DNA of 64,000 nucleotides, from assembly GCA_022825085.1 (NCBI GenBank), contig JAJDYQ010000107.1:5409-69408 (forward strand). Reading direction: 5' to 3'. This document shows, piece after piece, positions 22,932-58,240 of the stretch. Below the pieces are notes generated by a model that worked only from the letters and a program-made list of their open reading frames with translations, had not been told where the DNA came from and searched no databases. This DNA comes from Gammaproteobacteria bacterium (lineage in GTDB: Bacteria > Pseudomonadota > Gammaproteobacteria > JAJDYQ01). Position 1 is the first letter of the stretch; the number at the start of each line of letters is the position of its first letter. Position numbers and translations under genes: made by a program.

Positions 22932-23060
22932 TCAGTTGCTTGTCATTAAATATTAGCTATAATTTTTAACTCCATGTCAGGAACAAAGTCATCGTGCCTT
23001 CCATGCAGGGCCAGATAGCTATCTGCGCCATACTACGGAAACACCATATACTAACAATCC

Positions 23061-23591: not shown

Positions 23592-23916
23592 GGTGGCGAC
23601 ATATTTTATCAAACTTCGACAAACAAACTAAGGAGGCACTGACAAAGCCATTCAAAGAGTAAATGAGAGCTTGCCGATACCATATCAAAAAGACGATTAT
23701 ATCAGGCATTCGGAGTGCAGACCCATTCGCGCAGAGCAGCCTAACGGATTTCCCGATAACACCGCATGAGGTCCGCAAGAACAATCAGCCAAAAGAATAT
23801 AACGAGCAGCAAGTCGGCAGGCAATCCGGTTTGGCCTCTGGTCAGGAAGCATGGTAACCTGTCTGCATATCCGACCTGTCTAGGCCGGCTACATTTTTTC
23901 CATGGGGTTTGTATTG

Positions 23917-36922: not shown

Positions 36923-37542
36923 GCGGAAAGTCCGGTTACCCGATTCTCAAAGCAGGAGAAAATCAAGGCCAGAAATGAATATGAAGTATGGAAAAGTGCC
37001 ATGGAATTACTTCGCAGCCACTTTCGCCAGACCGCAGAAATGCTGGATAGCAATACAGCACTTACAGGTCGGGTCTATTTCAAGAATTTTGGCGACCTGG
37101 AATTTGAAAAATACCTGAGTCTGAAGCAAGGCATGTTCTCGAAAAAACATCATTCTTTCGGATAGATTTTGTTAGTGATCATAAATCGGCACGATATCTG
37201 TTTTTTTCGGTTGGCCGAGTCAATCACTCAAAGTTGACACTGACGTCACTCTTCACCTGTCACGTGAGGAACCGCCAAAGTCCTTCCACTATGAAAGGCT
37301 GGAAAATATTGATTCGTCAAACATACTCAGTACCATCGAGCTTGGTTATTGTGTCAGCAGGGAAAGTTTTGTCACAAAAGGAAAATCCGGGCGCAAAAAA
37401 ATGGATAAAATAGAAAATATTTGGAAAAAAATTCTTCGATGAGGTCACCAAGCATCACTTTCAAGCGTAGGGGAGCACTGAAGCAATTATGTTCAATATG
37501 GATATATGGATTAAAGTCCGGCCGGGCAAACAAGAGAATCAG

Positions 37543-38418
37543 TTATATCTCGCTCAACAGCTTTTCCGTCATGGATTCTGCCTGTCGCAGATAACTGCCG
37601 CCAAACAGATTATAGTGATTAAGGATATGGTACAGGTTGTATAGCGTTTTTCTGACCGGATAACCCTCGTTCAGGGGCCAGACGCCGTTATAGGCATCAT
37701 AAAACTTTGTTCCGGGTGCGCCAAACAGTTCAGTCATAGCTATATCTGCTTCACGATCTCCGTAGTAGGTTGCCGGATCATATATAACCGGTTCGCCGTG
37801 GTCGTCAAATGACCAGTTACCTGCCCATAAATCGCCATGCAGCAGTGAGGCTTGTGGCTGGTAAGCCGAAAAGAAGCGGGGCATGGCTTCCATCAGCTCA
37901 TTTCCCCGGTCTATCAGGCGACCCCCACAACCATTTTGCCTCGCCAGCCGAAGTTGGTATCCCAGGCGTCGGTTCTGCCAGAATCTGGCCCAGTTCTTAT
38001 CCGAATTGTTCTGCTGGGGAGTTGAACCGATGGTGTTGTCGATCCTGAAACCAAATGTTTCATTCGTATGTCTGTGCATGGCTGCCAGCTTTTCGCCAAA
38101 TTTTGCGGCACTCCCCTGTCTGGTAAGGGTTATGTACTCCAGTACCAGATAGCTGTGTCCACCTGCTTCGCCGTAGCAGATGGGGCGCGGCACGTTTATT
38201 GTGCCGGTATCCGTCATTGCCCACAGGCCTGCTGCCTCAGCAATAAACATGTCCAACAGTGATGCGGCATTGGTCTTTATAAAGTAGCGACAGGCACCGC
38301 TATCGAGCCGAAAGGCGGTATTGATACTGCCGCCACTTATCGGTTGTTGTCCATCAGCCTGAAAGGGGATGCCGGTTACACGGGTGATATTTTCAGTAAT
38401 GGCCCGGATCAATTCCAT
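37543..38418 (-). CDS. Fructosamine/ketosamine-3-kinase family protein
   Basis: 291 aa; aminoglycoside-phosphotransferase-like fold with HGDLWAGN and YDPATYYGDRE motifs. Confidence 0.85.
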   Translation of the reverse strand: MELIRAITENITRVTGIPFQADGQQPISGGSINTAFRLDSGACRYFIKTNAASLLDMFIAEAAGLWAMTDTGTINVPRPICYGEAGGHSYLVLEYITLTRQGSAAKFGEKLAAMHRHTNETFGFRIDNTIGSTPQQNNSDKNWARFWQNRRLGYQLRLARQNGCGGRLIDRGNELMEAMPRFFSAYQPQASLLHGDLWAGNWSFDDHGEPVIYDPATYYGDREADIAMTELFGAPGTKFYDAYNGVWPLNEGYPVRKTLYNLYHILNHYNLFGGSYLRQAESMTEKLLSEI

Positions 38419-39047
38419 TATTTGCCGAGAATGTTCATTTCCCGGCTGAGGCGATCATGCAGTGGACTGCTCCGGGGGAAGTGTGCGAGCAGAAATTTCA
38501 TCTGATCCGCCAGCACTTGCCTGCCCTGCAGATAAACATATTCAGCATGAGTCGGGGTGAACGGGATCGCCAGAAGTTCCATGCCTGCTTCTTCCGGTGT
38601 ACGCCCGGCTTTATGGTTGTTGCAGCGCTTGCAGGCGGTGACGACATTGTTCCAGACATCCTGTCCCTGCCGGCTGATTGGTGTTACATGGTCGCGGGAG
38701 AGTAGCTTTGCCTGAAATTTGTTGCCACAGTAGAGGCACATATGGCCATCTCTCTTGAATAGTGACGAGTTGTTCAGTGGTGCCGAATAACGCCGCTGTG
38801 CCTTGTACAGGCCACCAGCATGGCCTTTGGTCGCAATAATCGAGTTCACTTCAACAATGCTGCGTCTGCCACTGGTAGCGTTTATGCCGCCATGTATTTC
38901 ATATAGCAGGGCACCGCAGGTATAGGCAATCACGTCAAGGTAGTGAAACCGAACGGCTTCCCGATAAGAAATCCATTCCAGCGGCATACCGGAGGCATCT
39001 GTCCGGAGAACTTGTTGATTCAGGCCGCTACTGGCGTTTGCTGTCAT
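38418..39047 (-). CDS. HNH endonuclease-domain protein
   Basis: 209 aa; CLYCG ... H ... N ... CKRCNNHK HNH/zinc-finger core. Its stop overlaps the start of the downstream kinase-fold gene. Confidence 0.75.
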   Translation of the reverse strand: MTANASSGLNQQVLRTDASGMPLEWISYREAVRFHYLDVIAYTCGALLYEIHGGINATSGRRSIVEVNSIIATKGHAGGLYKAQRRYSAPLNNSSLFKRDGHMCLYCGNKFQAKLLSRDHVTPISRQGQDVWNNVVTACKRCNNHKAGRTPEEAGMELLAIPFTPTHAEYVYLQGRQVLADQMKFLLAHFPRSSPLHDRLSREMNILGK

Positions 39048-39118
39048 AAGTCCGTCCCGTGGTTTTCAGGCATTCTCCAGAAAATCGGCATCATTGCAAT
39101 GCCTTTCTTATACCCCGA

Positions 39119-40351
39119 TCATTTGAATTTGTGGATAGCCTCAATCAGTTCGGCAGCAGATTGAAATCGCCCATCAGGAGACTTGGATAACATTTTCTCC
39201 AGCAGAGGTTGGTATTTTTGATGCGGTGCCTGAAGTTTTGGGATTTCCGCATGTACATGCTTGTAGAACATCGCCATTGGGTTATCGGCTCGATATGGCT
39301 TTTTTCCGGTCAGCATCTGGTAATAGATGATACCCAGACTGTAAATGTCGGAACGGTGATCAACATTTTTGCCGCGTGCCTGTTCTGGACTGACATAGGA
39401 GGGAGTCCCATAAACTTCACCATGGTCGCTCAGGTCCTCTTCTATGACCATTCGGGCCAGACCAAAATCAAGAATGGCAAGGGTATCGTCTGCGCGGAAC
39501 AGTATGTTGCCGGGCTTAAGGTCTCTATGGACGATCTTTTTTCGATGTACATCATCCAACCCACTGGCTATCTGCCGCAGGTAGTCCAGTGCTTTGTCAG
39601 GTTTTATTCCTCCGCGGATGCGGCGTATCAGATTACCGCCAGAAAATCTTTCCATCACGATGAAGGCATACTCATCGGTGAATGTCTGATCGAAAATTTT
39701 GGCGACATGAATGTTTTCAATACTGGCCAGTATGTTGTATTCACGGATGAAGCGCTCAATCATGCGGTCGTCATCTATGTTATTTACATCCAGCACCTTG
39801 ACTGCCACTTCGAGGCCATCCAGAGCTCTTTCTGCCAACCAGACCCGTGACATACCGCCCCGACCGAGTTCGCGTATCAGGCGATAGCCACGCAGACCAT
39901 GGATTTTCTTTGTCAGCGTGTCATTGTCGGCGTATTGATTGGTGGCGGGTTCAGCGATGCCAGATGCGGTATTAGCATCTCGCAATCCACGGTCCGAGAA
40001 GCGTTTCATGCCTTCTGCGACCGCATTGTTCAGCGAAGATGTGGTCAACCCCTCCAAGGGCAGTATATTCGGCAAATCGGGGACGCTCCGGCTGGTGCTG
40101 AGCAGGATTATCAGAGGCAGGCTGCCATTTTCAGATTGCTCAAGCAGTTTGCGCATGGCTTCATCGGCATGGTCAAAACCGCTCAGTATTATAGCATCGG
40201 AGTTTTTGAGTTTCGGGTCGGAACCTATGTCTTCCAGATTGTATTTGTGTATGTCGGCGCCCGGCCAGCCTAAATCAAGATACTGGCTCAGGAGAAGAAA
40301 GTGCTCTTCCAATCGGTCAATGATGGCAAAATGACGTTCCATAATCAGCAT
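39119..40351 (-). CDS. Hanks-type Ser/Thr protein kinase with N-terminal pseudo-receiver-like domain
   Basis: LGRGGMSRVWLAERALDGLEVAVKVL (Gly-loop, VAVK), HRDLKPGNILF, DFGLA and GTPSYVSPE. The N-terminal ~145 aa have a receiver-like hhhD/hhhhS pattern. Confidence 0.85.
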   Translation of the reverse strand: MLIMERHFAIIDRLEEHFLLLSQYLDLGWPGADIHKYNLEDIGSDPKLKNSDAIILSGFDHADEAMRKLLEQSENGSLPLIILLSTSRSVPDLPNILPLEGLTTSSLNNAVAEGMKRFSDRGLRDANTASGIAEPATNQYADNDTLTKKIHGLRGYRLIRELGRGGMSRVWLAERALDGLEVAVKVLDVNNIDDDRMIERFIREYNILASIENIHVAKIFDQTFTDEYAFIVMERFSGGNLIRRIRGGIKPDKALDYLRQIASGLDDVHRKKIVHRDLKPGNILFRADDTLAILDFGLARMVIEEDLSDHGEVYGTPSYVSPEQARGKNVDHRSDIYSLGIIYYQMLTGKKPYRADNPMAMFYKHVHAEIPKLQAPHQKYQPLLEKMLSKSPDGRFQSAAELIEAIHKFK

Positions 40352-40362
40352 TGTTCCACAAA

Positions 40363-40390
40363 TATGGTCCCTGGGCTTTAATGGACCATA
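40363..40390. promoter_or_regulatory. Perfect 8-bp inverted repeat (TATGGTCC-N12-GGACCATA) abutting the Ser/Thr kinase start
   Basis: Located 12 nt upstream of the kinase ATG. Could form an RNA hairpin in the 5-prime UTR or a dimeric protein operator. Confidence 0.3.
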
Positions 40391-40852
40391 ATATAGTACA
40401 CGCCCCCAATCAAAGATGGTCTGTATTGGCAGAGGCTACCAGCGAACGCTCACCAACACCTGTCTTGTCCGGGTCATCAATAATAAAGTATCCGGATAAA
40501 TCATTTTTTCTTTTTTCGCAGCCTGCCATACCGACTTTGTGTTGAGACAGGCAGGTGGGTTGATTCTTTTCAGGTAACCATAAGAATAGGGACACCGTGA
40601 TAGTATCAGCTCGACCCTGGGCCTATGCGGAGACAATCAGATGACAGCTTTTGTAGATAATTATTTACTCAGTTTTCCGGCCACAGTAGCAGCTTCACAT
40701 TGTCAGAGCAGATATGGATAAATGGCAGTGGAAGGTGCCAAGAGCCGCCTTTGTGAATCTGACAAAACATTGCAGACAGTCTCGGGCAGGTTCAGGCCAC
40801 CTGAGGTATATAGCCGGGCAGCCTATAACCGGACATAGGCCCCGCGTCTGAA

Positions 40853-41131
40853 TCAACGCCCAAACAATTTGCCGATGAGGCCACCGAAAAGTCCCTTTTT
40901 TCTGGCACCTCGCTTGCTTGGGCGAGATCTCCCCATCACATTCAGGAAACGGTCACCCGCATCGTCACCAATCTCCCTGCATAGCATCTTGAATACGTAA
41001 TCCACCGAAATTCCGCGCTCAGCAAGCTCTTTGGCCTGCTCCTTAATCCACGCATCAGACGGTTTTTTCTTCATCCCATTGATAAAGCCATCAAGCAGGG
41101 TTTTTGACCACATTGTATGTTCATCAGCCAT
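40853..41131 (-). CDS. Small hypothetical protein with cationic amphipathic C-terminal tail
   Basis: 92 aa, ends KRGARKKGLFGGLIGKLFGR. Lies between the kinase and the VWA-FHA gene on the same strand. Confidence 0.5.
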   Translation of the reverse strand: MADEHTMWSKTLLDGFINGMKKKPSDAWIKEQAKELAERGISVDYVFKMLCREIGDDAGDRFLNVMGRSRPSKRGARKKGLFGGLIGKLFGR

Positions 41132-41213
41132 GAGCGAGCTCCTTAATAATTGCCAATCAGAGTAAATTTACCGGATTATGCCGGAAAATACCATGAAATG
41201 AATAGATATTTTA

Positions 41214-42683
41214 TTATTTGGATGGCAGCCGGGTACGAAACATCCGAGTAGCCTGCATATCGTTTGCCGGGGCACCTTCTGTCACAAAACGCAGGCGGAT
41301 ATCACCAATTTCTATGACATCGTCGTTCTTCAGGTCATGCTTCTTTACTTCCTGATTATTGATCAGCAAGCCATTTTTGGAACCAAGGTCTTTGATGGTG
41401 AACTGCCCCATATCATTGAGGCATATTTCAGCATGGTATCGAGATATGGCAGAGTCTGGCAAGGCAATGTCATTTTCCCGATATCGACCGATCTTTGTTG
41501 AAAGTGAACGAACAGGATAACGTCGCGTCTTTTGTTCACCATCCAAAATCTCCAGCCAGGCCGCCGCAGGGGGAGCTCCATTTTCTTCTCTGTCCACCTG
41601 AGGCAGGGGGGCGCTACCACGGGGTCTGAGACGCCATAGCAGGACGATAATGGATATGGCAAGCAGTAGGCTTAATAGCAGCAACGACCAGTACAGAGTA
41701 TCATCTTCAATCTGCCCGTTTTCCTGTACGCGCTCGATAATAACTGTGGGCGGCGGGACCGGTTCCTCGACCTTGGGCTGTATCTTGACTTTATCCGGCA
41801 GGGTGACTGGAACAGGTATCGATATCTGTCCAGATAAGGCTTGCAGAGCAATTTGTAAATGATGCCTGCCAGCAAGATTGGCAGCTATGGCATCCGAGAG
41901 ATCTATGTCATAGCTGCCAGATACATTCAGGCTATTGATTACCGCATGGATATCTTCTTGTTGCAAGCCATAGTATGCCGGTTTTGCCGCGATGTAGGTG
42001 CCGCCCGTATCTTCAGATAAGCGTCGCAGGGTTTGCAGGGCAACACTGTTGGATATGTTGTCAGCATAGCCGATCGTATGCAGGCTGATGTCATTTTGTA
42101 TGGCCGACTGCACTACATCACGGTGAAAATAGGCATAGTCCTCCGCCAATCCGTCGGACATCATCAATATCGATTTAACGTCCGCTGCAACCTGCCTGAG
42201 AATATTAATGGCCCCAAGGGTGTTCCTGTAGAGCTCGGTTGTTTTGCCCTTTGCGCGAATCGATCTGGCTGCCTGTATAATTTCTTCCCTGCTGCTGCCC
42301 GGCGGGGCCAGCAGATGCAGCTCTGTATCAAATCGGGCAATACCTGTCAGGGTGTGGCCCGGCAGCCGGTTGACAATTTCTTCGACGTGAGCAGCCTGAC
42401 TTCGAAGTGAGTCGGCTCGACGAGGATCACTGGAATCGATCAATATCAACAGAGCCGACACAAGCTGCCGCTCACTTTCCTGCAATGACAGGTCAACATC
42501 GTCCAGACTTGCCCTCGGTTGCGGGTAAGGACCCGGGGGTGTGCGCAGCATGACCCACAGGTGATCGCTGCTCCCCTGTTTGTAAAGCACCGCTGTCCCA
42601 TCACGCACAATCATGCTGGCATCAAGAAGCCCGGCACGCAATATGAGCACCACCAGCAGGCAGATTTGATATATTTGTCGCAT
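41214..42683 (-). CDS. Signal peptide-VWA (periplasmic)-TM-FHA (cytoplasmic) protein
   Basis: 489 aa; N-terminal signal-like hydrophobic segment; VWA-like region (ILIDSSDP ... LMMSDG); TM LYWSLLLLSLLLAISIIVLLW; C-terminal FHA (GRYRENDIALPDSAISRYHAEI ... DLGSKNGLLINNQEV). Confidence 0.8.
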   Translation of the reverse strand: MRQIYQICLLVVLILRAGLLDASMIVRDGTAVLYKQGSSDHLWVMLRTPPGPYPQPRASLDDVDLSLQESERQLVSALLILIDSSDPRRADSLRSQAAHVEEIVNRLPGHTLTGIARFDTELHLLAPPGSSREEIIQAARSIRAKGKTTELYRNTLGAINILRQVAADVKSILMMSDGLAEDYAYFHRDVVQSAIQNDISLHTIGYADNISNSVALQTLRRLSEDTGGTYIAAKPAYYGLQQEDIHAVINSLNVSGSYDIDLSDAIAANLAGRHHLQIALQALSGQISIPVPVTLPDKVKIQPKVEEPVPPPTVIIERVQENGQIEDDTLYWSLLLLSLLLAISIIVLLWRLRPRGSAPLPQVDREENGAPPAAAWLEILDGEQKTRRYPVRSLSTKIGRYRENDIALPDSAISRYHAEICLNDMGQFTIKDLGSKNGLLINNQEVKKHDLKNDDVIEIGDIRLRFVTEGAPANDMQATRMFRTRLPSK

Positions 42684-43701: not shown

Positions 43702-44207
43702 TGTTGAGCTGCTTCGCGGATTTCCAGCTTAAAAATTTAAAGATGCTGTCCATTATTCTACAAGGCAATAAAGACAATACAAAATTATAGAGGATGCTTT
43801 TGGCTCAATGGTTAATAACTTCAGACAAACGGCAACAATCCACATCATACCACTAATTATTTATGTATTTTATTGCGCGTCAGCTACGTAGAGCCCTGCT
43901 TTTTCTGTTCTGGACTGTATTGTGAGGGTGTGGCGGCGGAAATATTCTGGATTGAGTGGTTACAAATTCTGGATAAGCGGTGATCGATTACATCGATTGT
44001 AGCCCAATTATTGCTTGGGTTTCATTATAGATGCACTACAAAAGCCCGCTCATCCTCAGTTGCTGCATTTCAGGAGATGGCAGTAACGGGCCAGAAGGAC
44101 ACGAGGTACTGGCATTGCACCAGCCCGATGAGAACATGGCGCATGGGAATTCCGGCGGGGCGATGCCCGTCTCAGCCTCCCCGATGTGTGGCAGAAAATC
44201 TGGCTGG

Positions 44208-44390
44208 TCAGTTCATGACATGCTCAAGCCTTTGCGGGGCATAGCCACCTGGATCAAAGCTGTAACGAACCGGTTCAGAGATGAACTCGATGCGATTACA
44301 TGCCGGGCATTGATGCCACTCCAGAAAGCTATCCTGATGATTTTCCCTCTTTATCAAACGCATATGGGAGTAACAACGCGTGCACTGCAT
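44208..44390 (-). CDS. Small zinc-ribbon (CxxC...CxxC) hypothetical protein downstream of nrdB
   Basis: 60 aa; MQCTRCYSH ... QCPACN. Starts 60 nt after the nrdB stop on the same strand. Confidence 0.4.
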   Translation of the reverse strand: MQCTRCYSHMRLIKRENHQDSFLEWHQCPACNRIEFISEPVRYSFDPGGYAPQRLEHVMN

Positions 44391-44451
44391 AGACCACCTC
44401 CTATGGTTTTAACCATTATATGCGGACCAGTATGGCCCGTTTCAGCAAATT

Positions 44452-45684
44452 TCAGTCCCAATTCAACCCGCCGCCTGTCTGATATTCGGTGACGCGCGTT
44501 TCAAAAAAATTCTTTTCCTTGCGCAGATTGACTTGCTCGTCCAGCCACGGCAGAGCAGCCTCTCTGGTTGCCGGGAAAGGTTCTTCCAACCCCAGCTGGC
44601 GGGCACGGCGATTGGCGACGAAGCGAAACTGGCAGCTATGATCTTCTTTGGCATAGCCCAGAATAGGGGTACGCAGAATATAACCAGCATACGCAGATTC
44701 GGCTGCCTCGGCTTCGTCCCACATGGCACGAATGGTCAGCGGATCCAGCTTGACATTTTCTTCCAGAATGATCTGTTTGACCACGCGGATACCGAAGGAT
44801 GCGTGCATAACCTCATCGCGCATGATGTATTGCAGTTGTTCGGCGGTACCTTTCATCAGACCACGGCGCTGTAATGCAAAGATAGGACTGAAGCCGTTAT
44901 AAAACCAGCAACCCTCAAAAATGCCACCGAAGAAAATGTATGCCATAACAAAATTCTCCAACTCATCACGATCATTCAGATCGATATCGCTACGTAAAAT
45001 GGAGTGCAACCGGCGATTCGCAATCTGAATTTTACCATTGATTTCCGGCACCACCCGGTAGCGGTTGTAAATCTCTCCCTGATCCAGACCTATGGTTTCA
45101 ATGCAGTGCTGGTAAGTCCAGGTGTGAAGTGACTCTTCATACACCTGGCGAGCCTGATAAATTTGCAGTTCCGGGGCGCTCATCTTTTCCATAACAGCCA
45201 GACCGATATTGCGCATGGCCAGAATATCGGAAGTGGTCAAATAGGAAAGCACATTCTCATAGACATGGCGTTCTTCCGGTGTCAGCTTATGGTGATAATC
45301 ATGCACATCCTGCGCCATATTGATATCCAGCGGTGTCCAGTGATTTTTGTTGGCATTGAGAAAGTAATTCCATGCCCAGGGATATTTAAACGGCGCCAGT
45401 TGATTGATGTCTGTCATGCCATTGATGACACGCTTATCGTCCGGATTGACAGGACTGGTGTCTGTAACTTTCGGAGGAGCATGGGCACCAGTAGCATAGG
45501 AACCTGCCAGCGCATGGTATGTGTCAGGCGATGTGTGCATATCGCTATTCGACTGACATCCGGAGTCGGTGGCAGTCATTGAAGCGTTAATCGCCCGGGC
45601 AGCAGATGGTGCGGTCGCTTCGGCTTTCACCGTTGCGGATTCCGCTTTCAACCCGGCCAGTGGATCTTCCCATTGTTGAAACAC
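44452..45684 (-). CDS. nrdB: Ribonucleoside-diphosphate reductase class Ia beta subunit (long N-terminal form)
   Basis: 410 aa; di-iron ligand helices (EESLHTWTYQ, MRDEVMHASFG). About 90 aa N-terminal extension as in Pseudomonas-type NrdB. Confidence 0.92.
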   Translation of the reverse strand: MFQQWEDPLAGLKAESATVKAEATAPSAARAINASMTATDSGCQSNSDMHTSPDTYHALAGSYATGAHAPPKVTDTSPVNPDDKRVINGMTDINQLAPFKYPWAWNYFLNANKNHWTPLDINMAQDVHDYHHKLTPEERHVYENVLSYLTTSDILAMRNIGLAVMEKMSAPELQIYQARQVYEESLHTWTYQHCIETIGLDQGEIYNRYRVVPEINGKIQIANRRLHSILRSDIDLNDRDELENFVMAYIFFGGIFEGCWFYNGFSPIFALQRRGLMKGTAEQLQYIMRDEVMHASFGIRVVKQIILEENVKLDPLTIRAMWDEAEAAESAYAGYILRTPILGYAKEDHSCQFRFVANRRARQLGLEEPFPATREAALPWLDEQVNLRKEKNFFETRVTEYQTGGGLNWD

Positions 45685-45725: not shown

Positions 45726-48578
45726 TTATTGACATGCCTCACAATCAGGATCGAGAATGGAACAGACTCCAGATGATGTAGAGTCAGCATTATCACCCTG
45801 CATGTTATCGCTGCCAGTTTTTTCCATATGGGTCGCGCCCATAGATCGCAGGTAATAGGTAGTTTTAAGGCCCCGCACCCAAGCCAATTTATACAGATTA
45901 TCCATCTTTCTGCCGGACGGTTCGGCCATATAAAGGTTGAGCGATTGAGCCTGATCAATCCATTTCTGGCGACGGGCAGCAGCCTCGACCAGCCAGCGCG
46001 GGTCGATTTCGAATGCCGTAGCATACTGATTTTTAAGATCCTGCGGAATGCGATCAATTGGCTGCACACTGCCATCAAAATATTTCAGATCACCGACCAT
46101 AACTTCATCCCATAGATTGCGGGATTTCAGCTCCTTGACAAGATAGGGATTAATCACAGTAAATTCACCCGACAGGTTTGATTTTACGAACAGATTTTGA
46201 TAGGTGGGCTCAATCGATTGACTGATGCCACAAATATTGGAAATTGTCGCGGTAGGGGCAATAGCCATACAGTTGGAATTGCGCATACCAACTGCCATTA
46301 CCTGCTTGCGCAGCGCCTGCCAATCCAGTGTAGTGGAACGATCCACCTGTAGATAACCACCTCGATCGTCCTCCAGCCTTTCAATCGAGTCAATAGGCAA
46401 TATGCCCTGGGACCAGAGTGAACCGTCGAATGATGGATATTTACCACGCTCGGAAGCCAGATTACTGGACGCCTTGATTGCATAATAGCTGACAGCTTCC
46501 ATGGAACGGTCAGCAAACTCCACAGCCTCTTCGGAAGCATAAGCCATTTTCAATTTATACAGCGCATCCTGAAAACCCATGATACCCATGCCGACTGGAC
46601 GGTGCTTCATATTGGAGTGGCGCGCCTGCGGCACACTGTAGTAGTTGTAATCAACCACATTATCCAGCATGCGCATTGCGGTACCAATCGTCTTTTCCAG
46701 CTTTTCCATATCCAGGCCACTCTCGTCAACATGCCGCACCAGATTGATGCTGCCAAGATTGCATACGGCAACTTCTTCATCACTGGTATTTAAAGTGATC
46801 TCAGTGCATAGATTGGAGGAATGTACGACACCGGCATGTTGCTGAGGTGAGCGCAAATTACATGGGTCCTTAAATGTAATCCATGGATGACCCGTCTCAA
46901 ATAATAAACCCAGCATTTTGCGCCACAGATCAACAGCCTGCACTTTTTTATGGATGCGCAGCTCTCCATTGTCTGCCATGGCCTCGTATTCCTGATAGCG
47001 CTTCTCAAACGCCAGACCGGTCAATTCATGCAGGTCCGATGTCTCATCCGGCGAGAACAGCGTCCACACACCCTCCTCGCTGACTCGCTTCATAAACAGA
47101 TCCGGAATCCAGTTGGCGGTATTCATATCATGAGTGCGACGGCGGTCGTCACCGGTGTTCTTGCGCAGCTCCAGAAACTCCTCGATATCCAGATGCCATG
47201 TCTCCAGATAAGCACACATGGCACCTTTGCGCTTGCCGCCCTGATTGACCGCAACAGCGGTATCGTTGGCCACCTTCAGAAAGGGCACAACACCCTGAGA
47301 CTTGCCATTGGTACCCTTGATGTGCGAACCGAGGGCGCGCACACGGCTCCAGTCGTTGCCGAGACCTCCGGCAAACTTTGACAGCAGCGCATCGTCCCGG
47401 ATGGCACTGAAAATGCCATCAAGATCGTCCGGAACAGTGGTCAGATAGCAAGAGGAAAGCTGAGGCCGCAGGGTCCCCGAATTGAACAGGGTCGGAGTCG
47501 AGCTCATAAAGTCGAATGATGACAGCAGGTTGTAGAACTCCACCGCACGGGCTTCACGTTCCACCTCGTTAATAGCCAGACCCATGCTGACACGCATGAA
47601 AAAGGCCTGTGGCAATTCGATGCGTATGCCGTTCTCTGTATGCAGCAAATAACGATCATAAAGAGTTTGCAGCCCCAGATAAGTAAAATGCAGGTCACGC
47701 TCCGGCATGATGGCGGCAGCCAGCTTTTCTAAATCATAGGCGCCCAGTTGATCATCGAGCAACTCCAGATCGATGCCGGTTTTAATGTACTGTCTAAAGT
47801 AATCCGCATACATACTCTGCATATCGGCCTGGGCGGCACAGGTTGGCACACCACTGATACAGGTCAATACTTCAGTACGCAAGCCATCAAGCAGCAGGCG
47901 GGCGGCGACATAAGAATAATCAGGGTCCTGTTCGATCATGGTACGGGCTGACATAACCATCGCCGGACAGACATCCTCTTCCTTAATGCCATCAAACAGA
48001 CTTTTCATTGCATCTTCAATGATTTTGTCGCCGCTGACCGACTCAAGGCCGGCGGTAGCCTCGCCCATGACCACCCTGAGACGTTCCGTATCGAGATTGG
48101 CAGCCGAGCCATCGGGGCGAGTGACATGGATGGCACTGCTGACTTCAGCGGCTTCAGATGATACCTCCGTCTTGCGTCGGGCACGGGCATGTTCTTCACG
48201 GTACAACACATAGGCGCGGGCAACCTTGTGTTCACCATTGCGCATCAGGGCGAGCTCAACCTGATCCTGAATGGACTCGATATGCACGGCACCACCCACA
48301 TCAAGATGACGTGTGACTGCCCGGCAAACTTGGTCCGTCAGCTCATCAACAATCTGATGAACCCGGCTGGAAGCCGCCGCACTACCACCTTCAACCGCCA
48401 AAAATGCCTTGGTCATTGCAACCCTGATTTTGTTGGCATCAAAGCCGGTAGTTTTGCCATTCCGACGAATGACCCTGAAATCACCAGGGCTGGAAACATG
48501 ACCATCGATCAGTGACCCAACGGTACCGACAGACTGGGTGATGGTCTCAGCCACATCATGCATGACATTGGTTCGCAT
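45726..48578 (-). CDS. nrdA: Ribonucleoside-diphosphate reductase class Ia alpha subunit
   Basis: 950 aa; tandem ATP-cone N-terminus, catalytic core, C-terminal CxxC tail (DPDCEACQ). Confidence 0.95.
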   Translation of the reverse strand: MRTNVMHDVAETITQSVGTVGSLIDGHVSSPGDFRVIRRNGKTTGFDANKIRVAMTKAFLAVEGGSAAASSRVHQIVDELTDQVCRAVTRHLDVGGAVHIESIQDQVELALMRNGEHKVARAYVLYREEHARARRKTEVSSEAAEVSSAIHVTRPDGSAANLDTERLRVVMGEATAGLESVSGDKIIEDAMKSLFDGIKEEDVCPAMVMSARTMIEQDPDYSYVAARLLLDGLRTEVLTCISGVPTCAAQADMQSMYADYFRQYIKTGIDLELLDDQLGAYDLEKLAAAIMPERDLHFTYLGLQTLYDRYLLHTENGIRIELPQAFFMRVSMGLAINEVEREARAVEFYNLLSSFDFMSSTPTLFNSGTLRPQLSSCYLTTVPDDLDGIFSAIRDDALLSKFAGGLGNDWSRVRALGSHIKGTNGKSQGVVPFLKVANDTAVAVNQGGKRKGAMCAYLETWHLDIEEFLELRKNTGDDRRRTHDMNTANWIPDLFMKRVSEEGVWTLFSPDETSDLHELTGLAFEKRYQEYEAMADNGELRIHKKVQAVDLWRKMLGLLFETGHPWITFKDPCNLRSPQQHAGVVHSSNLCTEITLNTSDEEVAVCNLGSINLVRHVDESGLDMEKLEKTIGTAMRMLDNVVDYNYYSVPQARHSNMKHRPVGMGIMGFQDALYKLKMAYASEEAVEFADRSMEAVSYYAIKASSNLASERGKYPSFDGSLWSQGILPIDSIERLEDDRGGYLQVDRSTTLDWQALRKQVMAVGMRNSNCMAIAPTATISNICGISQSIEPTYQNLFVKSNLSGEFTVINPYLVKELKSRNLWDEVMVGDLKYFDGSVQPIDRIPQDLKNQYATAFEIDPRWLVEAAARRQKWIDQAQSLNLYMAEPSGRKMDNLYKLAWVRGLKTTYYLRSMGATHMEKTGSDNMQGDNADSTSSGVCSILDPDCEACQ

Positions 48579-48786
48579 TCTCTATCCTTGGGCTCTGCCC
48601 TGATGTATGAGCCTTATCCGGCGAGTCTTTGTTGTTTGGGTTCTCAATCTTGTTTTCATCCATAATAAGTAAGGCTTATTGGGCAAGCCTTTGTCGCTAT
48701 ACTACTACTGATTAATTAAGCATATACTACCTAAACATAAAAATATACCCTAAAACTCAACATGTCGTAGCAAAGATCTAACTTCA

Positions 48787-48802
48787 GCACAATATGTTGT
48801 GC
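48787..48802. promoter_or_regulatory. Candidate NrdR box (near-palindrome GCACAATATGTTGTGC) upstream of nrdA
   Basis: Matches the acaCwAtATaTwGtgt consensus recalled for NrdR operators; about 210 nt upstream of the nrdA start. Confidence 0.45.
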
Positions 48803-49120
48803 TTTTTCTCTGGATACACCGGGGAATAGCTGGGAGCAAATTGTGGATAAACCAGCAAGAGGACAATCTGCCGAAACGATTGAAATTTTTATTGGAGGGG
48901 AAATTATCTGGAAAATCTGGGAAGCAGGCAGGCTGCCAACGAATAAATGTAATCGAGCACCTTAAACAGCGATATGCGACCAGATCCGAGGTTGTTTGAT
49001 CTGAATCCGTGATAACGGAATCAGAACAGTTATCAATTCAGCATCAGATCATCGGAAAGTACTGTGGCGTTAAAACCATGAACGGATATGCCGGACAATA
49101 TGCGGTCGGCTCGATAATTT

Positions 49121-49705
49121 CTAATTAAACCTGAAATTATTCATCTGATCTGCCGCCTCTTTCGGTGCTTTTCTTGAGGTGGCCTCAAATTCGTCACCGA
49201 CATCAACCGGGTTCGGAACCTTGATGGTTGGGGCAGTCCAGCCGCCAGGCATTTCACCCATTTCACCTGGAGCCTCCAGCAGATCGTCCCACATTTTTGA
49301 CATGCCCCCCCTTGGATCCTCAGGATCCATCCAGCTTCCGGGCCAGCTATCAAAGAAATTGTTCCTTTGCCACCTGCGGTTGTTCATCCAGCCAGAGTTC
49401 CAGGGACCACGGTTCCAGGGGCCGGAGAAGGTTCCGAAGGGGGCTCTGTTCCACAGAGTGTTGCCACCGCCCCCCCGATGTAATTTTCCGTATGGATACG
49501 GCGGCGGATAGTATGGTTGTTGCGGGACTACCGGTGGATAGGCATATGGCAGCATGGGCGCTGCATATCCGCCATGATGGCTTCCGCTCCAAGGCACGCT
49601 ATCGCCCCAATACGGGCCCGGCCAGAGCTGCGCGGCTGCGGCAAAGCTCAGCGCAACTAATGGCAGGCTGACAAGCAGGTATTTTGCTTTCAAGGGATTT
49701 TTCAC
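49121..49705 (-). CDS. Secreted low-complexity Trp/Pro/Gly/Tyr/Asn-rich protein
   Basis: 194 aa; signal peptide MKNPLKAKYLLVSLPLVALSFAAAA, then repetitive W/P/G/N-rich segments (12 Trp). Confidence 0.65.
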   Translation of the reverse strand: MKNPLKAKYLLVSLPLVALSFAAAAQLWPGPYWGDSVPWSGSHHGGYAAPMLPYAYPPVVPQQPYYPPPYPYGKLHRGGGGNTLWNRAPFGTFSGPWNRGPWNSGWMNNRRWQRNNFFDSWPGSWMDPEDPRGGMSKMWDDLLEAPGEMGEMPGGWTAPTIKVPNPVDVGDEFEATSRKAPKEAADQMNNFRFN

Positions 49706-49833
49706 CGACGTGACGGGACTTTGTTGACTGATATTGTTCAGAGGATGATCATCTTAATACAAAATCGGCTTTTGCGATAGTCGTTGCAGATTGCTGCATG
49801 GAGACAAGCCGGAAGCCAATCAATCATTCCGAC

Positions 49834-52116
49834 TTACTCGCCCTCGGTTGCGACGACTTTGCTGTAATGACAGTCTTTTTCTGGACAGACCTGTTCAGCA
49901 CCCTTGCGCTTGGTGGTTTTCATTGTCAGCATGGGCCAATTACAGGAAGGGCAGGGCTCATCAACAGGTTCGTTCCATACAGCGTAGTCACAATCGGGGT
50001 AACGTGAACAGGAATAAAATATTTTTCCACGGCGTGACCGGCGGGAAACCATCTTCCCCTTTTTACATTTTGGGCAGGCAACCCCGGTATCAGTCGGCTT
50101 TTCCAGCGGCTCTATGAATGTGCAGTCAGGGTAGGCACTACACCCAATAAACTTACCATACTTTCCCTGCCGGACGAGCAATGCGGAACCACACAAAGGG
50201 CAACTGCGCCCCTCTACTATTTCGTGGCTTTCCTGCTTGCTTTCCCCGTTGATATTGCAAGTGTAATCACAATCAGGGTAGGTACTGCACCCGATAAAGC
50301 GCCCTCTTCGGCCAAGCCGTATAAGCAGAGGCGAACTGCATTTGGGACATTTTTCATCGATTTTTTCTGTTGTGGCATCTGTCCGGCTGACCGACTGCTC
50401 CTTATGTTTTACCAGCTTGATAAATGGCTTCCAGAAACTATCCATCACCGGAATCCAGTCTTTTTCTCCACGGGAAACCGCGTCCAGATCATCCTCCATA
50501 TGGGCCGTAAAGTCGTAATCGACATAGTTGGGGAAATGATTAGTCAGAAAACGGTTAACCACCCGGCCGACATCCGTGGGAAAAAAGCGCCGACGGTCCA
50601 TTTCCACATATTCCCGGTTTTGCAGCGTGGAGATAATGGACGCATACGTAGAAGGCCGACCAATACCATATTCTTCCAGGGCACGAACCAGTGTAGCTTC
50701 AGTATAGCGTGGAGGGGGCTCGGTAAAATGCTGATCCGCCCGGATAGCCTTCAAGTGAATCTCATCGCCCTTCTCCATATTGGGCAGCATTTTTTCATCG
50801 TCACCCTTATTGTCATCCCTGCCCTCAAGATAGATCGACATAAAACCCGGTTTAGCGATTGTTGAACCCGTTGAGCGGAAGGCATTACCTTCGCCGCAGG
50901 CGAAATCTACGGTTACGGTATTCAGCGTGGCATGAATCATCTGACAGGCCACAGTTCGCTTCCAGATGAGGCTGTACAGTCCATACTGGTCTTTGCTCAG
51001 TGAATTTTTAAGCGAATCGGGGGTTCGCATCACGGATGTAGGACGTATGGCCTCGTGGGCCTCTTGGGCATTTTTGGCTTTGGTCTTATATATCTGTGGT
51101 TTGGTCGGTAAATTTTCTTTGCCGTACTCGCTTGTGATATAGCCGCGTATCTCATCTATCGCATCTTTTGCCAGTGTCACAGAGTCCGTACGCATATAGG
51201 TAATCAGACCAACGGTGCCACTCCCGGTGTCGATACCCTCGTACAGTGTCTGGGCAGTACGCATGGTACGTTGAGCAGAAAATCGCAGCTTGCGAACTGC
51301 CTCCTGCTGCATGGTTGAAGTGGTAAATGGAGCAGAGGGATTGCGCCGGCGGGATTTTTTTTCCACGCTGGAAACAATAAGCCTTTTTCCTCCGTGCTTT
51401 TTCAGATTCTTATGGGCAGCTTTCGCATCTTTTTCATTATTGATGGTGAACTGTTTGACTTTTTCACCGTTATACATATTGAGTCTAGCGACAAAATCCT
51501 GCTCGTCTTTATTCAAATCAGCCTCAAGAGTCCAGTATTCGCGGGGCTTGAACGCCTCGATTTCATCTTCCCTTTCGGCGATCAGGCGAAGAGCGGGGCT
51601 TTGCACACGCCCGGCAGACAGTCCACGGCGGATTTTTTTCCATAACAGCGGCGACAGATTAAAACCTACGAGGTAATCCATACCCCGGCGCGCCAGTTGT
51701 GCATTAATCAGTTCCTGTGAAAGCTCTCGCGGATGTTCCATGGCTTCCTGTATGGCATGCCTGGTAATTTCATGGAAGACAACACGATAGACTCTTTTAT
51801 TCTTTAAGAGCTTTTTATCGTGCAACATTTCATGCAGATGCCAGGAAATGGCCTCCCCCTCACGATCCGGATCAGTTGCCAGATACAGGACGCTGGATTT
51901 TTTCAATGCCCTGGCAATGGTTTCAACATGCCTTTCGTTTTTCTCGATTGGTTCGTAAGACATTTCATAGTTATGCTCGGTATCTATGGCACCTTCACGC
52001 GGCACAAGATCACGAACATGCCCGTAAGAAGCCAGTACCAGAAAATCCCTGCCAAGATATTTGGTAATAGTTTTGGATTTTGCAGGCGATTCAACAATGA
52101 CAAGATTTTTGGCCAT
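49834..52116 (-). CDS. topA: DNA topoisomerase I
   Basis: 760 aa; Toprim N-terminus (LVIVESPAKSKTITKYLG), active-site region, and C-terminal C4 zinc ribbons. Confidence 0.95.
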   Translation of the reverse strand: MAKNLVIVESPAKSKTITKYLGRDFLVLASYGHVRDLVPREGAIDTEHNYEMSYEPIEKNERHVETIARALKKSSVLYLATDPDREGEAISWHLHEMLHDKKLLKNKRVYRVVFHEITRHAIQEAMEHPRELSQELINAQLARRGMDYLVGFNLSPLLWKKIRRGLSAGRVQSPALRLIAEREDEIEAFKPREYWTLEADLNKDEQDFVARLNMYNGEKVKQFTINNEKDAKAAHKNLKKHGGKRLIVSSVEKKSRRRNPSAPFTTSTMQQEAVRKLRFSAQRTMRTAQTLYEGIDTGSGTVGLITYMRTDSVTLAKDAIDEIRGYITSEYGKENLPTKPQIYKTKAKNAQEAHEAIRPTSVMRTPDSLKNSLSKDQYGLYSLIWKRTVACQMIHATLNTVTVDFACGEGNAFRSTGSTIAKPGFMSIYLEGRDDNKGDDEKMLPNMEKGDEIHLKAIRADQHFTEPPPRYTEATLVRALEEYGIGRPSTYASIISTLQNREYVEMDRRRFFPTDVGRVVNRFLTNHFPNYVDYDFTAHMEDDLDAVSRGEKDWIPVMDSFWKPFIKLVKHKEQSVSRTDATTEKIDEKCPKCSSPLLIRLGRRGRFIGCSTYPDCDYTCNINGESKQESHEIVEGRSCPLCGSALLVRQGKYGKFIGCSAYPDCTFIEPLEKPTDTGVACPKCKKGKMVSRRSRRGKIFYSCSRYPDCDYAVWNEPVDEPCPSCNWPMLTMKTTKRKGAEQVCPEKDCHYSKVVATEGE

Positions 52117-52146
52117 TAGTAAGGATATTCCTTGTAAAGATTCAGT

Positions 52147-52486
52147 TCAGAGGGATGGCACCCTGGATAAATGCTGTCGATTTAGCCCCTCAAAGGCCAC
52201 CTGTTCGTGGCTCTGGTTCAATAATACAGCCAGAACCACCCATTCGAGCTGGTCAAGTGTAATGTCATATTCGACTAATGCAATGACACGATCCACTACA
52301 GACTCGAAACTGTTGGGGAATAAAATCCCGGTACTGACCAGATTGAGTAGATAGTTGCCACAATCAGCGAAAGCAGAGGCCGCAGTCTGGAGCCGCCCAG
52401 CATCACCTGGGCCGTCAGCCTCCTGTAGAGTCCACTCCGGTCACCAATCATGTACAAACCATATCATCTCTGATTATTGCGAACAT
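52147..52486 (-). pseudogene. smg: smg (DUF494) remnant: frameshifted and shortened
   Basis: ATG at 52486 (overlapping the dprA stop) gives only MFAIIRDDMVCT*. The +1 frame then carries an Smg-like C-terminal half (CGNYLL ... VVDRVIALVEYDITLDQLEWVVLAVLLNQSHEQVAFEGL) with no start codon. Total span is shorter than a canonical smg. Confidence 0.45.
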
Positions 52487-56350: not shown

Positions 56351-57647
56351 AAGCCCACCGGGAATAAATGTCCGTGAGCAGGCGGTGCGTGTGCTTGTGC
56401 GTATCATTGATGGGCACCAGACCCTGGACAACACCCTGGAGCGGCATCTGATCCGCGTAGAACCCATTGACCGCCCGTTACTGCAAGTCCTGTGCTATGG
56501 CGTTATGCGCTGGTATCCGCAACTCAGGGAATGGCTGGCACAGCTTTCGGACAAACCTGCTGGGCAACTAAAGCCGGAAGTCCGGGTATTAATACTGCTG
56601 GGAATTTACCAGCTGCGATATACACATATACCCCCACATGCGGCCATTCATGCCACCGTCGAGTGCGCCGCCTCTTTTTTGCAAGCCTCCCGTGCCGGCG
56701 GTTTCATCAATGCAATACTCCGGGAGTATCAGCGGTGCGACAAGCAGGGCTCACTAACAGATAACGAAGCGACCCGTTATGCACATCAGAGCTGGATGCT
56801 GGACATGATACGAATAGACTGGCCGGAAGACTGGCAGAGAGTGGTGCAGAATAATAATCAACAGGCACCGATGGTGCTGCGCCTGGATGTTGCCAACATG
56901 TCAGTCAGGAAATACCTTGAATTGCTGGACAAAACTGGAATTGAGGCCAATGTTCATCAATATGTACCCACAGCGATAGTTCTGAAAAAAGCTGTTGATG
57001 TAGAGCAGCTTCCCGGCTTCGAACAGGGTCTGGTCTCCGTTCAGGATGCAGCCGCCCAGCTGGCAGCACCGCTGCTGGAAGCGACACCGCAACATCGGGT
57101 ACTTGATGCCTGCGCTGCCCCCGGAGGGAAAACGGCGCATATTCTGCAACAGGTCAGGACTGCAAAACTGGTGGCGCTGGACTCCAATCCACAACGGCTG
57201 AAAAAACTTGAACAACTATTTGAGCGCATTCACCAGAACGCGGAAATTGTTACCGGCGATGCTTCCCAACCTGAGCACTGGTGGGATGGCAGACATTTCG
57301 ACCGAATCCTGCTTGATGTCCCTTGCAGTGCCAGCGGAGTCATACGTCGCCACCCTGACATTAAAACTCGTTCACCGCATGCCGTACAGAAAATAGCAAA
57401 ACGCCAGGCACGGATACTGGATGCTGTCTGGGGCCTCCTTGCCAAGGGAGGCAGAATGGTTTACGTCACCTGCTCCGTGTTCAAACTGGAAAATCAATAT
57501 CAAATAGAATGCTTTCTGCAACGCCAAAGTGATGCTATGACAAAACCGATTGAAAGCGAATGGGGTCAGGGACAAATCGGACGCCAGATACTACCAGGTG
57601 AAGGCGACATGGATGGATTTTATTTTGCGATACTGGAAAAAAGGTGA
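56310..57647 (+). CDS. rsmB: 16S rRNA (cytosine967-C5)-methyltransferase RsmB
   Basis: 445 aa; NusB-like N-domain and SAM-MTase core (DACAAPGGKT, DVPCSASGVIRRHPDIK, TCSV). Start overlaps the fmt 3-prime end and is uncertain. Confidence 0.88.
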   Translation: MNPAIFLVNRRKNKSPPGINVREQAVRVLVRIIDGHQTLDNTLERHLIRVEPIDRPLLQVLCYGVMRWYPQLREWLAQLSDKPAGQLKPEVRVLILLGIYQLRYTHIPPHAAIHATVECAASFLQASRAGGFINAILREYQRCDKQGSLTDNEATRYAHQSWMLDMIRIDWPEDWQRVVQNNNQQAPMVLRLDVANMSVRKYLELLDKTGIEANVHQYVPTAIVLKKAVDVEQLPGFEQGLVSVQDAAAQLAAPLLEATPQHRVLDACAAPGGKTAHILQQVRTAKLVALDSNPQRLKKLEQLFERIHQNAEIVTGDASQPEHWWDGRHFDRILLDVPCSASGVIRRHPDIKTRSPHAVQKIAKRQARILDAVWGLLAKGGRMVYVTCSVFKLENQYQIECFLQRQSDAMTKPIESEWGQGQIGRQILPGEGDMDGFYFAILEKR

Positions 57648-58240
57648 GGCACCTCACCGAATCGACAATATGCTTTTTGCTGCTTGCAGGCCAGCTTCTG
57701 CCGGGCATGGCCTGTGCAGACAACGAAACCTTTGCCAAGTATGATATTCAGGTAGAGCAGGAACAGGCACACTTAACTTTAAGGGGCGATATTCATTTTA
57801 ATTTCAGTCGGGTAGCCCTTGAAGCACTGGATAATGGTCTCCCCATTACGTTGATCACCGAAATTGAACTGGTGGAGCCCGGTGCATGGCCCTGGAGCCG
57901 TGCCATCTGGGAAAAATCATTCACCCATGAAATTCAGTACCACGCCCTGAGTCAACAGTACCTGGTCAAAAGCATTCAGGCCGGCTTCCCTAAAGCCTAT
58001 CTGACGCTCAGTTCGGCACTAAAGGCATTAGGCAGGATTGAAAACCTTGAAGTCCGCAAACCGGAAAAGTCAGATCCAGACAAAAACCATATCATACAGG
58101 TACGCACAGGACTGGACAGCGAGAAACTGCCGATTCCGCTCAGGCCACTGACCTATTTGTCCAATAGCTGGCGTCTGCGAGGCAACTGGCAGAAGATTTA
58201 CTGGCAGAATACTGAAAGGGAAGATGCAGATTTACGGTAA
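57644..58240 (+). CDS. DUF4390-domain protein (conserved rsmB/ntrY neighbour)
   Basis: 198 aa with a signal-like N-terminus. Same position as DUF4390 genes in fmt-rsmB-DUF4390-ntrY loci. Confidence 0.65.
   Translation: MRHLTESTICFLLLAGQLLPGMACADNETFAKYDIQVEQEQAHLTLRGDIHFNFSRVALEALDNGLPITLITEIELVEPGAWPWSRAIWEKSFTHEIQYHALSQQYLVKSIQAGFPKAYLTLSSALKALGRIENLEVRKPEKSDPDKNHIIQVRTGLDSEKLPIPLRPLTYLSNSWRLRGNWQKIYWQNTEREDADLR

Follow-up and report, generated by a model that had tools for sequence, protein, structure and literature searches.

What kind of protein is encoded by the short minus-strand open reading frame (ORF) that lies between nrdA and topA in a 64,000-nucleotide stretch of DNA (the window) from a member of the Gammaproteobacteria (assembly GCA_022825085.1, contig JAJDYQ010000107.1)? 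An original prediction, made from the letters of the window, had described the product as a secreted, largely disordered protein of no recognisable family, and had suggested biomineral-matrix, adhesin, phase-separating or sulfur-globule roles, all of which stand as hypotheses. Judged from sequence comparison, the protein belongs to a family described in neither Pfam, NCBIfam nor PDB, and it is bipartite: the signature of the family is a C-terminal module of ∼50 amino acids, a candidate new domain, and not the low-complexity part that first drew attention. Most members combine a Sec signal peptide, a fast-evolving disordered region and a strongly conserved acidic C-terminal module. Secreted low-complexity structural proteins of thiotrophs are already known as a general kind; it is the family and its module that these databases do not describe.

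The ORF (positions 49121-49705) comprises 194 codons, from a GTG start at 49703-49705 to a TAG stop at 49121-49123, and a six-frame motif search of the window for paralogues found it to be the sole copy. Over the whole gene, the ratio of nonsynonymous to synonymous substitution (dN/dS) was 0.17 relative to the homologue in locus L001 (90% amino acid identity) and 0.16 relative to that in L002 (64%). By region, dN/dS was ∼0.5 in the signal peptide, 0.14-0.19 in the low-complexity middle and 0.05-0.08 in the C-terminal 70 residues (125-194), the relaxed value at the N-terminus being that expected for a signal peptide. The ATG start codon of L001, L002 and L003 reads ACG in the window (49709-49711, minus strand) and a GTG has arisen two codons downstream of the lost ATG (GCA or GCG to GTG; alignment A3), so translation in the window must begin at the GTG; this compensated shift speaks for continued translation. 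The original prediction had left room for a spurious ORF without homologues, and what we found was low dN/dS and hundreds of homologues, which indicate that this is a genuine gene under purifying selection and not a chance ORF. A spurious ORF or a decaying, functionless gene, to which the GTG start with its weak Shine-Dalgarno match, the lack of a consensus promoter or terminator in minus-strand scans and the pseudogene remnant of the neighbouring smg in the same lineage might have pointed, is extremely improbable in the face of a dN/dS of 0.05-0.19 in the frame of the ORF, the compensated start-codon loss and a near-invariant module common to hundreds of homologues; the spurious ORF is excluded by these conservation data. 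One homologue, in the MAG (metagenome-assembled genome) L003 (∼6001-6457), keeps the C-terminal half in frame and has the N-terminal half in another frame, for which a frameshift, an assembly error and a pseudogene are alternative explanations.

The composition of the product is as had been predicted. It contains 12 Trp, 27 Pro, 22 Gly, 13 Asn, 9 Tyr and no Cys, the strings PYYPPPYPYG, GPWNRGPWNSGWMNNRRWQRNNFF and WPGSWMDPEDPRGG were all located in it, and relative to the 45 further ORFs in the window that have 150 or more codons it is an outlier in Trp (z = 5.2), in Pro plus Gly (z = 5.8) and in Ile plus Leu plus Val (z = −3.5). The N-terminus, MKNPLKAKYLLVSLPLVALSFAAAAQ, has a basic n-region with three Lys, then 17 hydrophobic residues as its core, then an Ala-rich stretch for cleavage, so that by sequence rules, which were used rather than a predictor, the protein is judged to be exported via a Sec-type signal peptide, as the original prediction had held. 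An equivalent hydrophobic N-terminus is present in 114 family members, and in the relatives the signal peptide shows AxA followed by Trp or Phe. The low-complexity region (residues 27-124) is basic (pI 9.9), lacks Cys and holds both PYYPPPYPYG and GPWNxG repeats. It is followed by residues 125-173, which carry every conserved position of the MPGGW-module family: W125..P128..W139-D-D-L-L-E-A-P146..M149-G-E-M152-P-G-G-W156-T-A-P159-T-I-K-V-P164-N-P166-V-D-V-G-D-E-F173. The last 70 residues, which are hydrophilic and acidic, contain no hydrophobic stretch. A known C-terminal sorting signal would show a short motif ahead of a hydrophobic transmembrane helix and a basic tail, and NCBIfam models would detect it; no NCBIfam match at E≤10 and no hydrophobic helix was found, and a signal of the PEP-CTERM or GlyGly-CTERM type was rejected.

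Scans of the window protein against Pfam and NCBIfam gave no match at E≤10, and PDB held no match to the family by sequence profile and none to the structural model by Foldseek, in agreement with the earlier impression that no family could be recognised. An exact look-up of the window protein gave no record; a word-indexed search returned 19 relatives, none of them functionally named; cluster-name look-ups for 20 relatives and for the TopA homologues gave no functional names; and the family is not mentioned in the literature that we consulted on sulfur globule proteins, symbiont proteomics, disordered proteins and Thiothrix. An exhaustive hidden Markov model search of 1.84 billion cluster representatives identified 154 clusters (50% identity) at E≤1e-3, and with a profile made from 138 members the count of clusters, at 90% identity, was 358. 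In pairwise BLASTP the window protein matched a Thiothrix member, P0331 (E = 7e-10), and, over the module, a member with a PDZ domain, P0361 (E = 2e-11).

Alignment of the relatives revealed N-terminal two-thirds that are poorly alignable and a C-terminal third that is strikingly conserved. The consensus of the module is W..P..PK......WDDM(L/I)NAP..MGxMPGGWxAPS(I/L)SVP(N/D)PVDVGDEF, and the family signature within it, W..WDDM(L/I)NAP..MGxMPGGWxAPS(I/L)SxP(N/D)PV, sits ∼40 residues before the C-terminus. Across 147 sequences (numbered as in the window protein), M152, P153, G155, P159 and P164 are present at 100%, a value that for M152, P153 and G155 is partly due to selection, because the regular expression used to select members, MP[GP]G[WF], fixes these three. 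P146, G150 and P166 reach 98-99%, and W125, W139 and W156 reach 93-97%.

In the variable region, by comparison, selection acts on composition rather than on sequence. Among the 114 full-length members this region averages 16.8% Pro, 12.0% Gly, 10.1% Asn, 7.2% Tyr, 6.9% Gln, 6.5% Arg and 3.4% Trp and is depleted in Leu, Ile, Val, Glu, Asp and Lys, and only 3 of the 114 proteins contain any Cys. This composition is kept, but sequence, length and repeat type are not (GPWDSG, SMPWNNN, QPGYGY and PQNYPP repeats all occur). The two parts form blocks of opposite charge, the variable part having a median pI of 9.9 (net positive in 84%) and the C-terminal part one of 4.2 (net negative in 92%). FG-nucleoporin-like, prion-like and disordered colicin translocation domains are cohesive low-complexity analogues. 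The variable region resembles such domains in its aromatic-Gly/Pro motifs (PW, GPW, MPW, PFG and WG) set in Asn/Gly/Ser spacers, although all three analogues come from eukaryotic or toxin contexts and have no sequence relation to the family.

A bipartite architecture is also apparent in the structural models. AlphaFold2 modelling of the full-length protein (20 sequences) gave a mean predicted local distance difference test score (pLDDT) of 46.6, with no residue reaching 70 and only short helices; pLDDT was below 50 over residues 19-66, 68-95 and 111-127, which fits disorder of the N-terminal part. Modelling of the C-terminal 74 residues with a 138-sequence alignment raised the mean to 69, with a core at 74-79, and placed a helix at ∼131-148, a Pro-rich extended loop and a second helix at ∼166-191, in which most of the less conserved tail (174-194) is included. 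The five C-terminal models disagree (mean pLDDT from 46 to 69), and we assign the predicted helix, Pro-rich loop and helix moderate confidence. The claim that the protein has almost no secondary structure stands for residues 19-127, which mostly fall below a pLDDT of 50, but not for the C-terminal 70 residues, which are predicted to form a conserved helix-loop-helix module.

The module is not confined to proteins with a disordered N-terminal part. A profile search identified a subfamily in which a signal peptide is followed directly by a PDZ domain (PF13180, 36-45 bits, above the cut-off), then by a Q/N/P-rich linker and the same module. Since the module also occurs after a PDZ domain, it behaves as a portable unit. 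The subfamily gene comes last in a tight three-gene cluster: the first gene encodes a PDZ protein, the second an alpha-class carbonic anhydrase, and 8-53 bp separate this second gene from the third. The cluster, which could encode a periplasmic scaffold for the carbonic anhydrase, was found in four loci that represent two independent places in the genome. The PF13180 PDZ domain directly after a signal peptide is shared with periplasmic proteins of the HtrA/DegP type; unlike these, the PDZ subfamily lacks a protease domain, and the window protein has no PDZ domain by Pfam. In one of the four loci, L077, dsrC lies ∼4 kb from the family member.

Host names associate the family with sulfur-oxidising lineages, an association based on these names and not on a genome-wide profile. 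The 67 loci found in species-representative genomes are all from Gammaproteobacteria or Pseudomonadota, and the informative names among them are two Solemya gill symbionts, Sedimenticola, Sedimenticolaceae, Chromatiales, Thiotrichaceae, Thiotrichales and MAGs of Arenicellales; several species of Thiothrix (Ca. T. moscowensis, Ca. T. putei, T. litoralis and a Thiothrix sp.) come in addition from the profile search. One of the members (L039) is encoded by the Solemya velum symbiont. The TopA of the window shares 97% identity with that of a 2.5-Mb MAG chromosome, 75-87% with others within its clade and ∼68-70% with those of Thiohalobacter, Thiohalomonadaceae, Sedimenticola and Granulosicoccaceae.

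When the 547 neighbouring ORFs at the 67 loci were clustered, we observed lineage-specific synteny only and no conserved operon (Table 1). The original prediction had placed the gene correctly between nrdA and topA, without stating its strand (all three genes are on the minus strand), and had argued from this position that it was probably core rather than accessory. This holds within its own clade, where adjacency to topA recurs on at least eight contigs, but not for distant relatives, which have entirely different neighbourhoods. In Thiothrix, the GH18 gene adjoins the family gene in L074, and a divergent peptidase M20 gene lies between them in L069 and L071-L073; neither this GH18 neighbour nor the SLT_2 neighbour of Thiothrix was found at the other 67 loci. 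Six loci of the Arenicellales type have, beside the family gene and divergent from it, a gene for a second secreted low-complexity protein, which is G/Y/N-rich, has four conserved Cys (RECKSCQEHRNGGS..YYPGGVY..) and has no Pfam match.

Which function would fit such a protein? The reading that we tentatively favour, while giving it no better than about one chance in three, is that it is a periplasmic self-associating scaffold or coat that docks via its C-terminal module and organises sulfur deposition. After export and cleavage of the signal peptide, the protein would remain in the periplasm, where the C-terminal module would act as a specific docking or assembly (oligomerising) element. The disordered region would provide cohesive, sticky material, with Trp, Tyr, Phe and Arg as stickers and Gly, Asn and Pro as spacers, and head-to-tail association would be helped by the two blocks being oppositely charged. 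The assembled protein would then organise periplasmic sulfur deposition as an analogue, not a homologue, of SgpA-D. Sulfur deposition is the likeliest target because the named hosts are sulfur oxidisers and because the build of the protein parallels that of sulfur-globule envelope proteins, which are likewise Sec-exported, Cys-free, monocistronic and rich in Pro, Gly and aromatic residues. The affinity of the window's TopA to those of Thiohalobacter, Thiohalomonadaceae and Sedimenticola and the dsrC gene ∼4 kb from one member also speak for a link to sulfur.

The resemblance to known sulfur globule proteins, whose genes are induced 6- to 28-fold by sulfide or thiosulfate, is one of general design. 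These proteins are Sec-exported, proline-patterned, separately transcribed and non-homologous to one another (PMC10386293; PMC7356093), and of such traits the family has a rule-based Sec signal, 14-17% Pro, varying repeats and an essential absence of Cys. With SgpA and SgpB it shares a Sec signal peptide that has AxA at its end and Trp next to it (the mature Trp end being seen in relatives), a predicted periplasmic destination, Pro/Gly/Tyr/Trp-rich low complexity without Cys, a stand-alone transcription unit and occurrence in sulfur-oxidising Gammaproteobacteria, Thiothrix included. It differs from them in lacking the core GPFD(D)GSGWGDFNMSMGGGGRGYG and the G/Y/A/P repeats, in having its own C-terminal module instead, and in being hydrophilic, richer in Asn, Gln and Arg and poorer in Ala. 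SgpD (Alvin_2515) of Allochromatium vinosum coats sulfur globules, as seen with an mCherry fusion, and is not essential (PMC10386293); its coating of globules demonstrates that unrelated families can share this role. SgpD is non-homologous and, like the family, Sec-exported and proline-patterned, with a mature N-terminus that is also Trp. It is described as having two long, very confidently predicted alpha-helices and as essentially confined to Chromatiaceae (PMC10386293); compared with this description, the window protein is mostly disordered, has short helices only and occurs in other lineages.

Several results weigh against the sulfur-scaffold reading. The first is a test of membership in Pfam PF17228 (SGP, comprising SgpA/SgpB; gathering score 26.7 bits). 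The positive control, ALG67575.1 of Beggiatoa leptomitoformis, scored 27.7 bits, and neither the window protein nor six other family members gave a match at E≤10. In a profile-profile comparison by hhalign, the family alignment (A1) matched an alignment of experimentally supported Beggiatoaceae Sgp sequences (A2; sequences from the PMC7356093 supplement) in the signal peptide only (26 columns, probability 58%), and membership was rejected on both grounds. Secondly, the mature window protein is hydrophilic (grand average of hydropathicity −0.93), whereas SgpA-C are described as extremely hydrophobic (PMC10386293). Thirdly, members, which occur in Thiothrix, Sedimenticola and Thiotrichaceae, are also found in the S. 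velum symbiont, in which microscopy shows no sulfur deposits (PMC4287430), and none was seen in named Chromatiaceae or Beggiatoaceae, the classic formers of globules, in scans that could miss divergent members. Finally, at the 67 or more loci no gene of sulfur metabolism recurs as a neighbour, and the contexts that are conserved point elsewhere: in Thiothrix these are a lytic transglycosylase and GH18, in the PDZ subfamily an alpha-class carbonic anhydrase. Of the sulfur-globule role proposed for this protein, then, the host range, which points to sulfur oxidisers, is in support, and the PF17228 test is not. One further similarity concerns the motif DGSGW, which we take to be identical to the colicin E9 TolB-box, perhaps by coincidence. 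It is contained in the core of the Beggiatoaceae Sgp sequences (PMC7356093 supplement).

The conserved gene contexts are better accommodated if the protein is an envelope anchor or adaptor without a direct role in sulfur metabolism, an explanation that we rank slightly below the sulfur scaffold and thus also as no more than possible. The module would dock on some conserved component of the envelope, for example peptidoglycan or a periplasmic or outer-membrane protein, and the N-terminal part would be the working end. This end would be a disordered region serving as gel or spacer in some members and a PDZ domain in others, with clients that may include the periplasmic carbonic anhydrase of the same operon. 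Such a role fits the joining of one module to two different N-terminal parts, the tight PDZ/alpha-class carbonic anhydrase operon at its two genomic locations and the SLT_2 gene downstream and GH18 gene upstream in Thiothrix, the operon and the lytic transglycosylase being better explained than by a sulfur scaffold, and it would explain why the gene is retained in the S. velum symbiont, which has no visible globules. However, the SLT_2 and GH18 neighbours are missing from the other 67 loci, the module bears no resemblance to known peptidoglycan- or carbohydrate-binding domains in Pfam, PDB or Foldseek searches, the model is helical and not a beta-rich binding fold, and the restriction to sulfur oxidisers is left unexplained.

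Somewhat more doubtful is the idea that the family represents an unrecognised class of periplasmic condensate or coat proteins of sulfur-oxidising Gammaproteobacteria, in which the portable module would nucleate or anchor either a cohesive, disordered, aromatic-rich layer or a PDZ-carbonic anhydrase adaptor around periplasmic deposits or enzymes. If true, this class would add a structural component to what is known of sulfur storage or of how the periplasm is organised, chemosynthetic symbionts included. Periplasmic sulfur storage is central to thiotrophs and chemosynthetic symbioses, and the globule proteins known so far belong to a few unrelated small families (SgpA/B, SgpC and SgpD), most of the work on which has been done in purple sulfur bacteria. 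A module joined to a cohesive disordered region would offer a new handle on the organisation of the periplasm, be its role that of globule coat, envelope tether or enzyme scaffold, and since members occur in culturable Thiothrix, the hypotheses are directly testable.

An extracellular matrix, adhesin or sheath protein, whose N/Q/G/Y-rich region would be amyloid-like or adhesive beyond the outer membrane, is unlikely. The N/Q/G/Y-rich composition is like that of prion-like and functional-amyloid sequences, Thiothrix makes sheaths and holdfasts and has a GH18 gene near the family gene, and one lineage has GGDEF/EAL and secreted lipase neighbours. Yet the family gene has no linked genes for export, whether of a secretion system, of curli type or of another sort, the gene is kept by intracellular symbionts, and AlphaFold2 predicted no beta-rich structure.

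We consider it very unlikely that the family consists of periplasmic binders of metals of the Cu(I)/Ag(I) type, with Met and Trp as ligands in the MxxM-P-G-G-W motif of the module and in the SMPW and NMPW repeats of relatives. CusF has Met/Trp Cu(I) sites, and here M152 is present in every aligned sequence (partly by selection), with M149 in 64% and the near-invariant W156 beside it; MPW occurs 77 times across 31 members, and some (P0042) have more than 15 SMPW repeats. Set against this, a single Met is kept throughout with no His or Cys, no locus has cop, cus or pco neighbours, and Met in the variable region is near background (1.17-fold). A shade less probable again is a matrix protein for a non-sulfur periplasmic mineral such as carbonate. 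The Gly-x-Asn repeats and the acidic block recall shell-matrix proteins such as nacrein, and the PDZ subfamily lies in a carbonic anhydrase operon, but this link is limited to one subfamily, and we know of no carbonate inclusions in Thiothrix, Sedimenticola or Solemya symbionts. Achromatium, a related sulfur bacterium, makes extracytoplasmic CaCO3 (PMC6995342), but no Achromatium member was seen.

Table 1. Coordinates of the gene, its parts and its flanks in the window, and gene contexts of the family at other loci (L numbers).
Feature	Position	Strand	Basis or remark
Whole gene	49121-49705	minus	dN/dS 0.16-0.17, homologues
Sec-type signal peptide, residues 1 to ∼26, MKNPLKAKYLLVSLPLVALSFAAAAQ	49628-49705	minus	sequence rules
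Low-complexity P/G/Y/W/N-rich region, residues 27-124	49334-49627	minus	composition, AlphaFold2 pLDDT, poor alignability
Conserved C-terminal module, residues 125-173	49187-49333	minus	column conservation, dN/dS, AlphaFold2
Acidic, less conserved tail, residues 174-194, ending ..DQMNNFRFN	49124-49186	minus	alignment, model
Upstream intergenic region, 128 bp	49706-49833	minus	topA stop to start codon
topA (upstream flank)	49834-52116	minus	beyond it dprA, LysM protein, def, fmt, rsmB
nrdA (downstream flank)	45726-48578	minus	
nrdB (downstream flank)	44452-45684	minus	
Window's clade, topA then family gene			at least 8 contigs (TopA 80-97% identical); downstream nrdAB here, glmS/glmU in L068
Solemya symbiont and Sedimenticolaceae MAG			divergent ThiI-like PP-loop protein upstream (both); glyQ/glyS downstream (Solemya locus)
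13-locus lineage			secreted class-3 lipase upstream; GGDEF/EAL protein downstream in most
6-locus Arenicellales-type lineage			ABC exporter in 5 of 6; divergent secreted G/Y/N-rich four-Cys protein; DUF302
Thiothrix			SLT_2 (MltB-like) lytic transglycosylase always 72-92 bp downstream, same strand; GH18 upstream
Thiothrix stretches	L069 5394-9937; L071 2390-6839; L074 3739-6915		
PDZ/carbonic anhydrase cluster	L070 6469-8834; L075 and L076 4549-6762; L077 1187-3561		
Divergent four-Cys protein gene	L016 333-770; L023 4955-5395; L025 5029-5535; L028 4482-4913; L030 5150-5734; L063 5079-5519	minus	

The region upstream of the gene contains blocks conserved among four relatives, GACTnTCGnAAAA, TTAAGAT (49751-49757) and GTCAACAA (49721-49728; alignment A3), which may be promoter or ribosome-binding elements. 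Simple sigma-70 promoter and terminator scans found no convincing minus-strand signal, and Rfam models matched no RNA element within 48000-50500. On the other side of topA, the dprA-topA gap (52117-52463) holds a remnant of smg (DUF494) at 52183-52365 on the minus strand, which aligns with residues 85-145 of the 158-residue Smg encoded between dprA and topA in L068 (75% identity). In L001 the gene is truncated in the same way, which suggests gene decay in a sub-lineage whose relatives have genomes of ∼2.5 Mb. A perfect palindrome, AGCACAATATGTTGTGCT (48786-48803), lies ∼210 bp upstream of nrdA, where the scan flagged a terminator-like element of the plus strand. The palindrome is similar to an NrdR box and is presumably part of nrdAB regulation.

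The annotated larger ORFs of the window are housekeeping genes and a few signalling genes (Fic, Ser/Thr kinase, FHA+VWA), with none for sulfur metabolism. Four plus-strand ORFs of 153-250 codons have no family match: 22994-23581, which is overlapped by an antisense ORF (23061-23612), 34063-34815 and 57644-58240, each without a match in NCBIfam, and 44031-44492, without one in Pfam. In one stretch (36083-42683), genes of signalling or defence-like character cluster together: those for the Fic-domain protein (36083-36922), the Ser/Thr kinase (39119-40351) and the FHA+VWA protein (41214-42683), and one for a 209-residue protein (38418-39047) whose HNH region matches IscB/Cas9d models. The 291-codon ORF at 37543-38418 in this stretch is unannotated.

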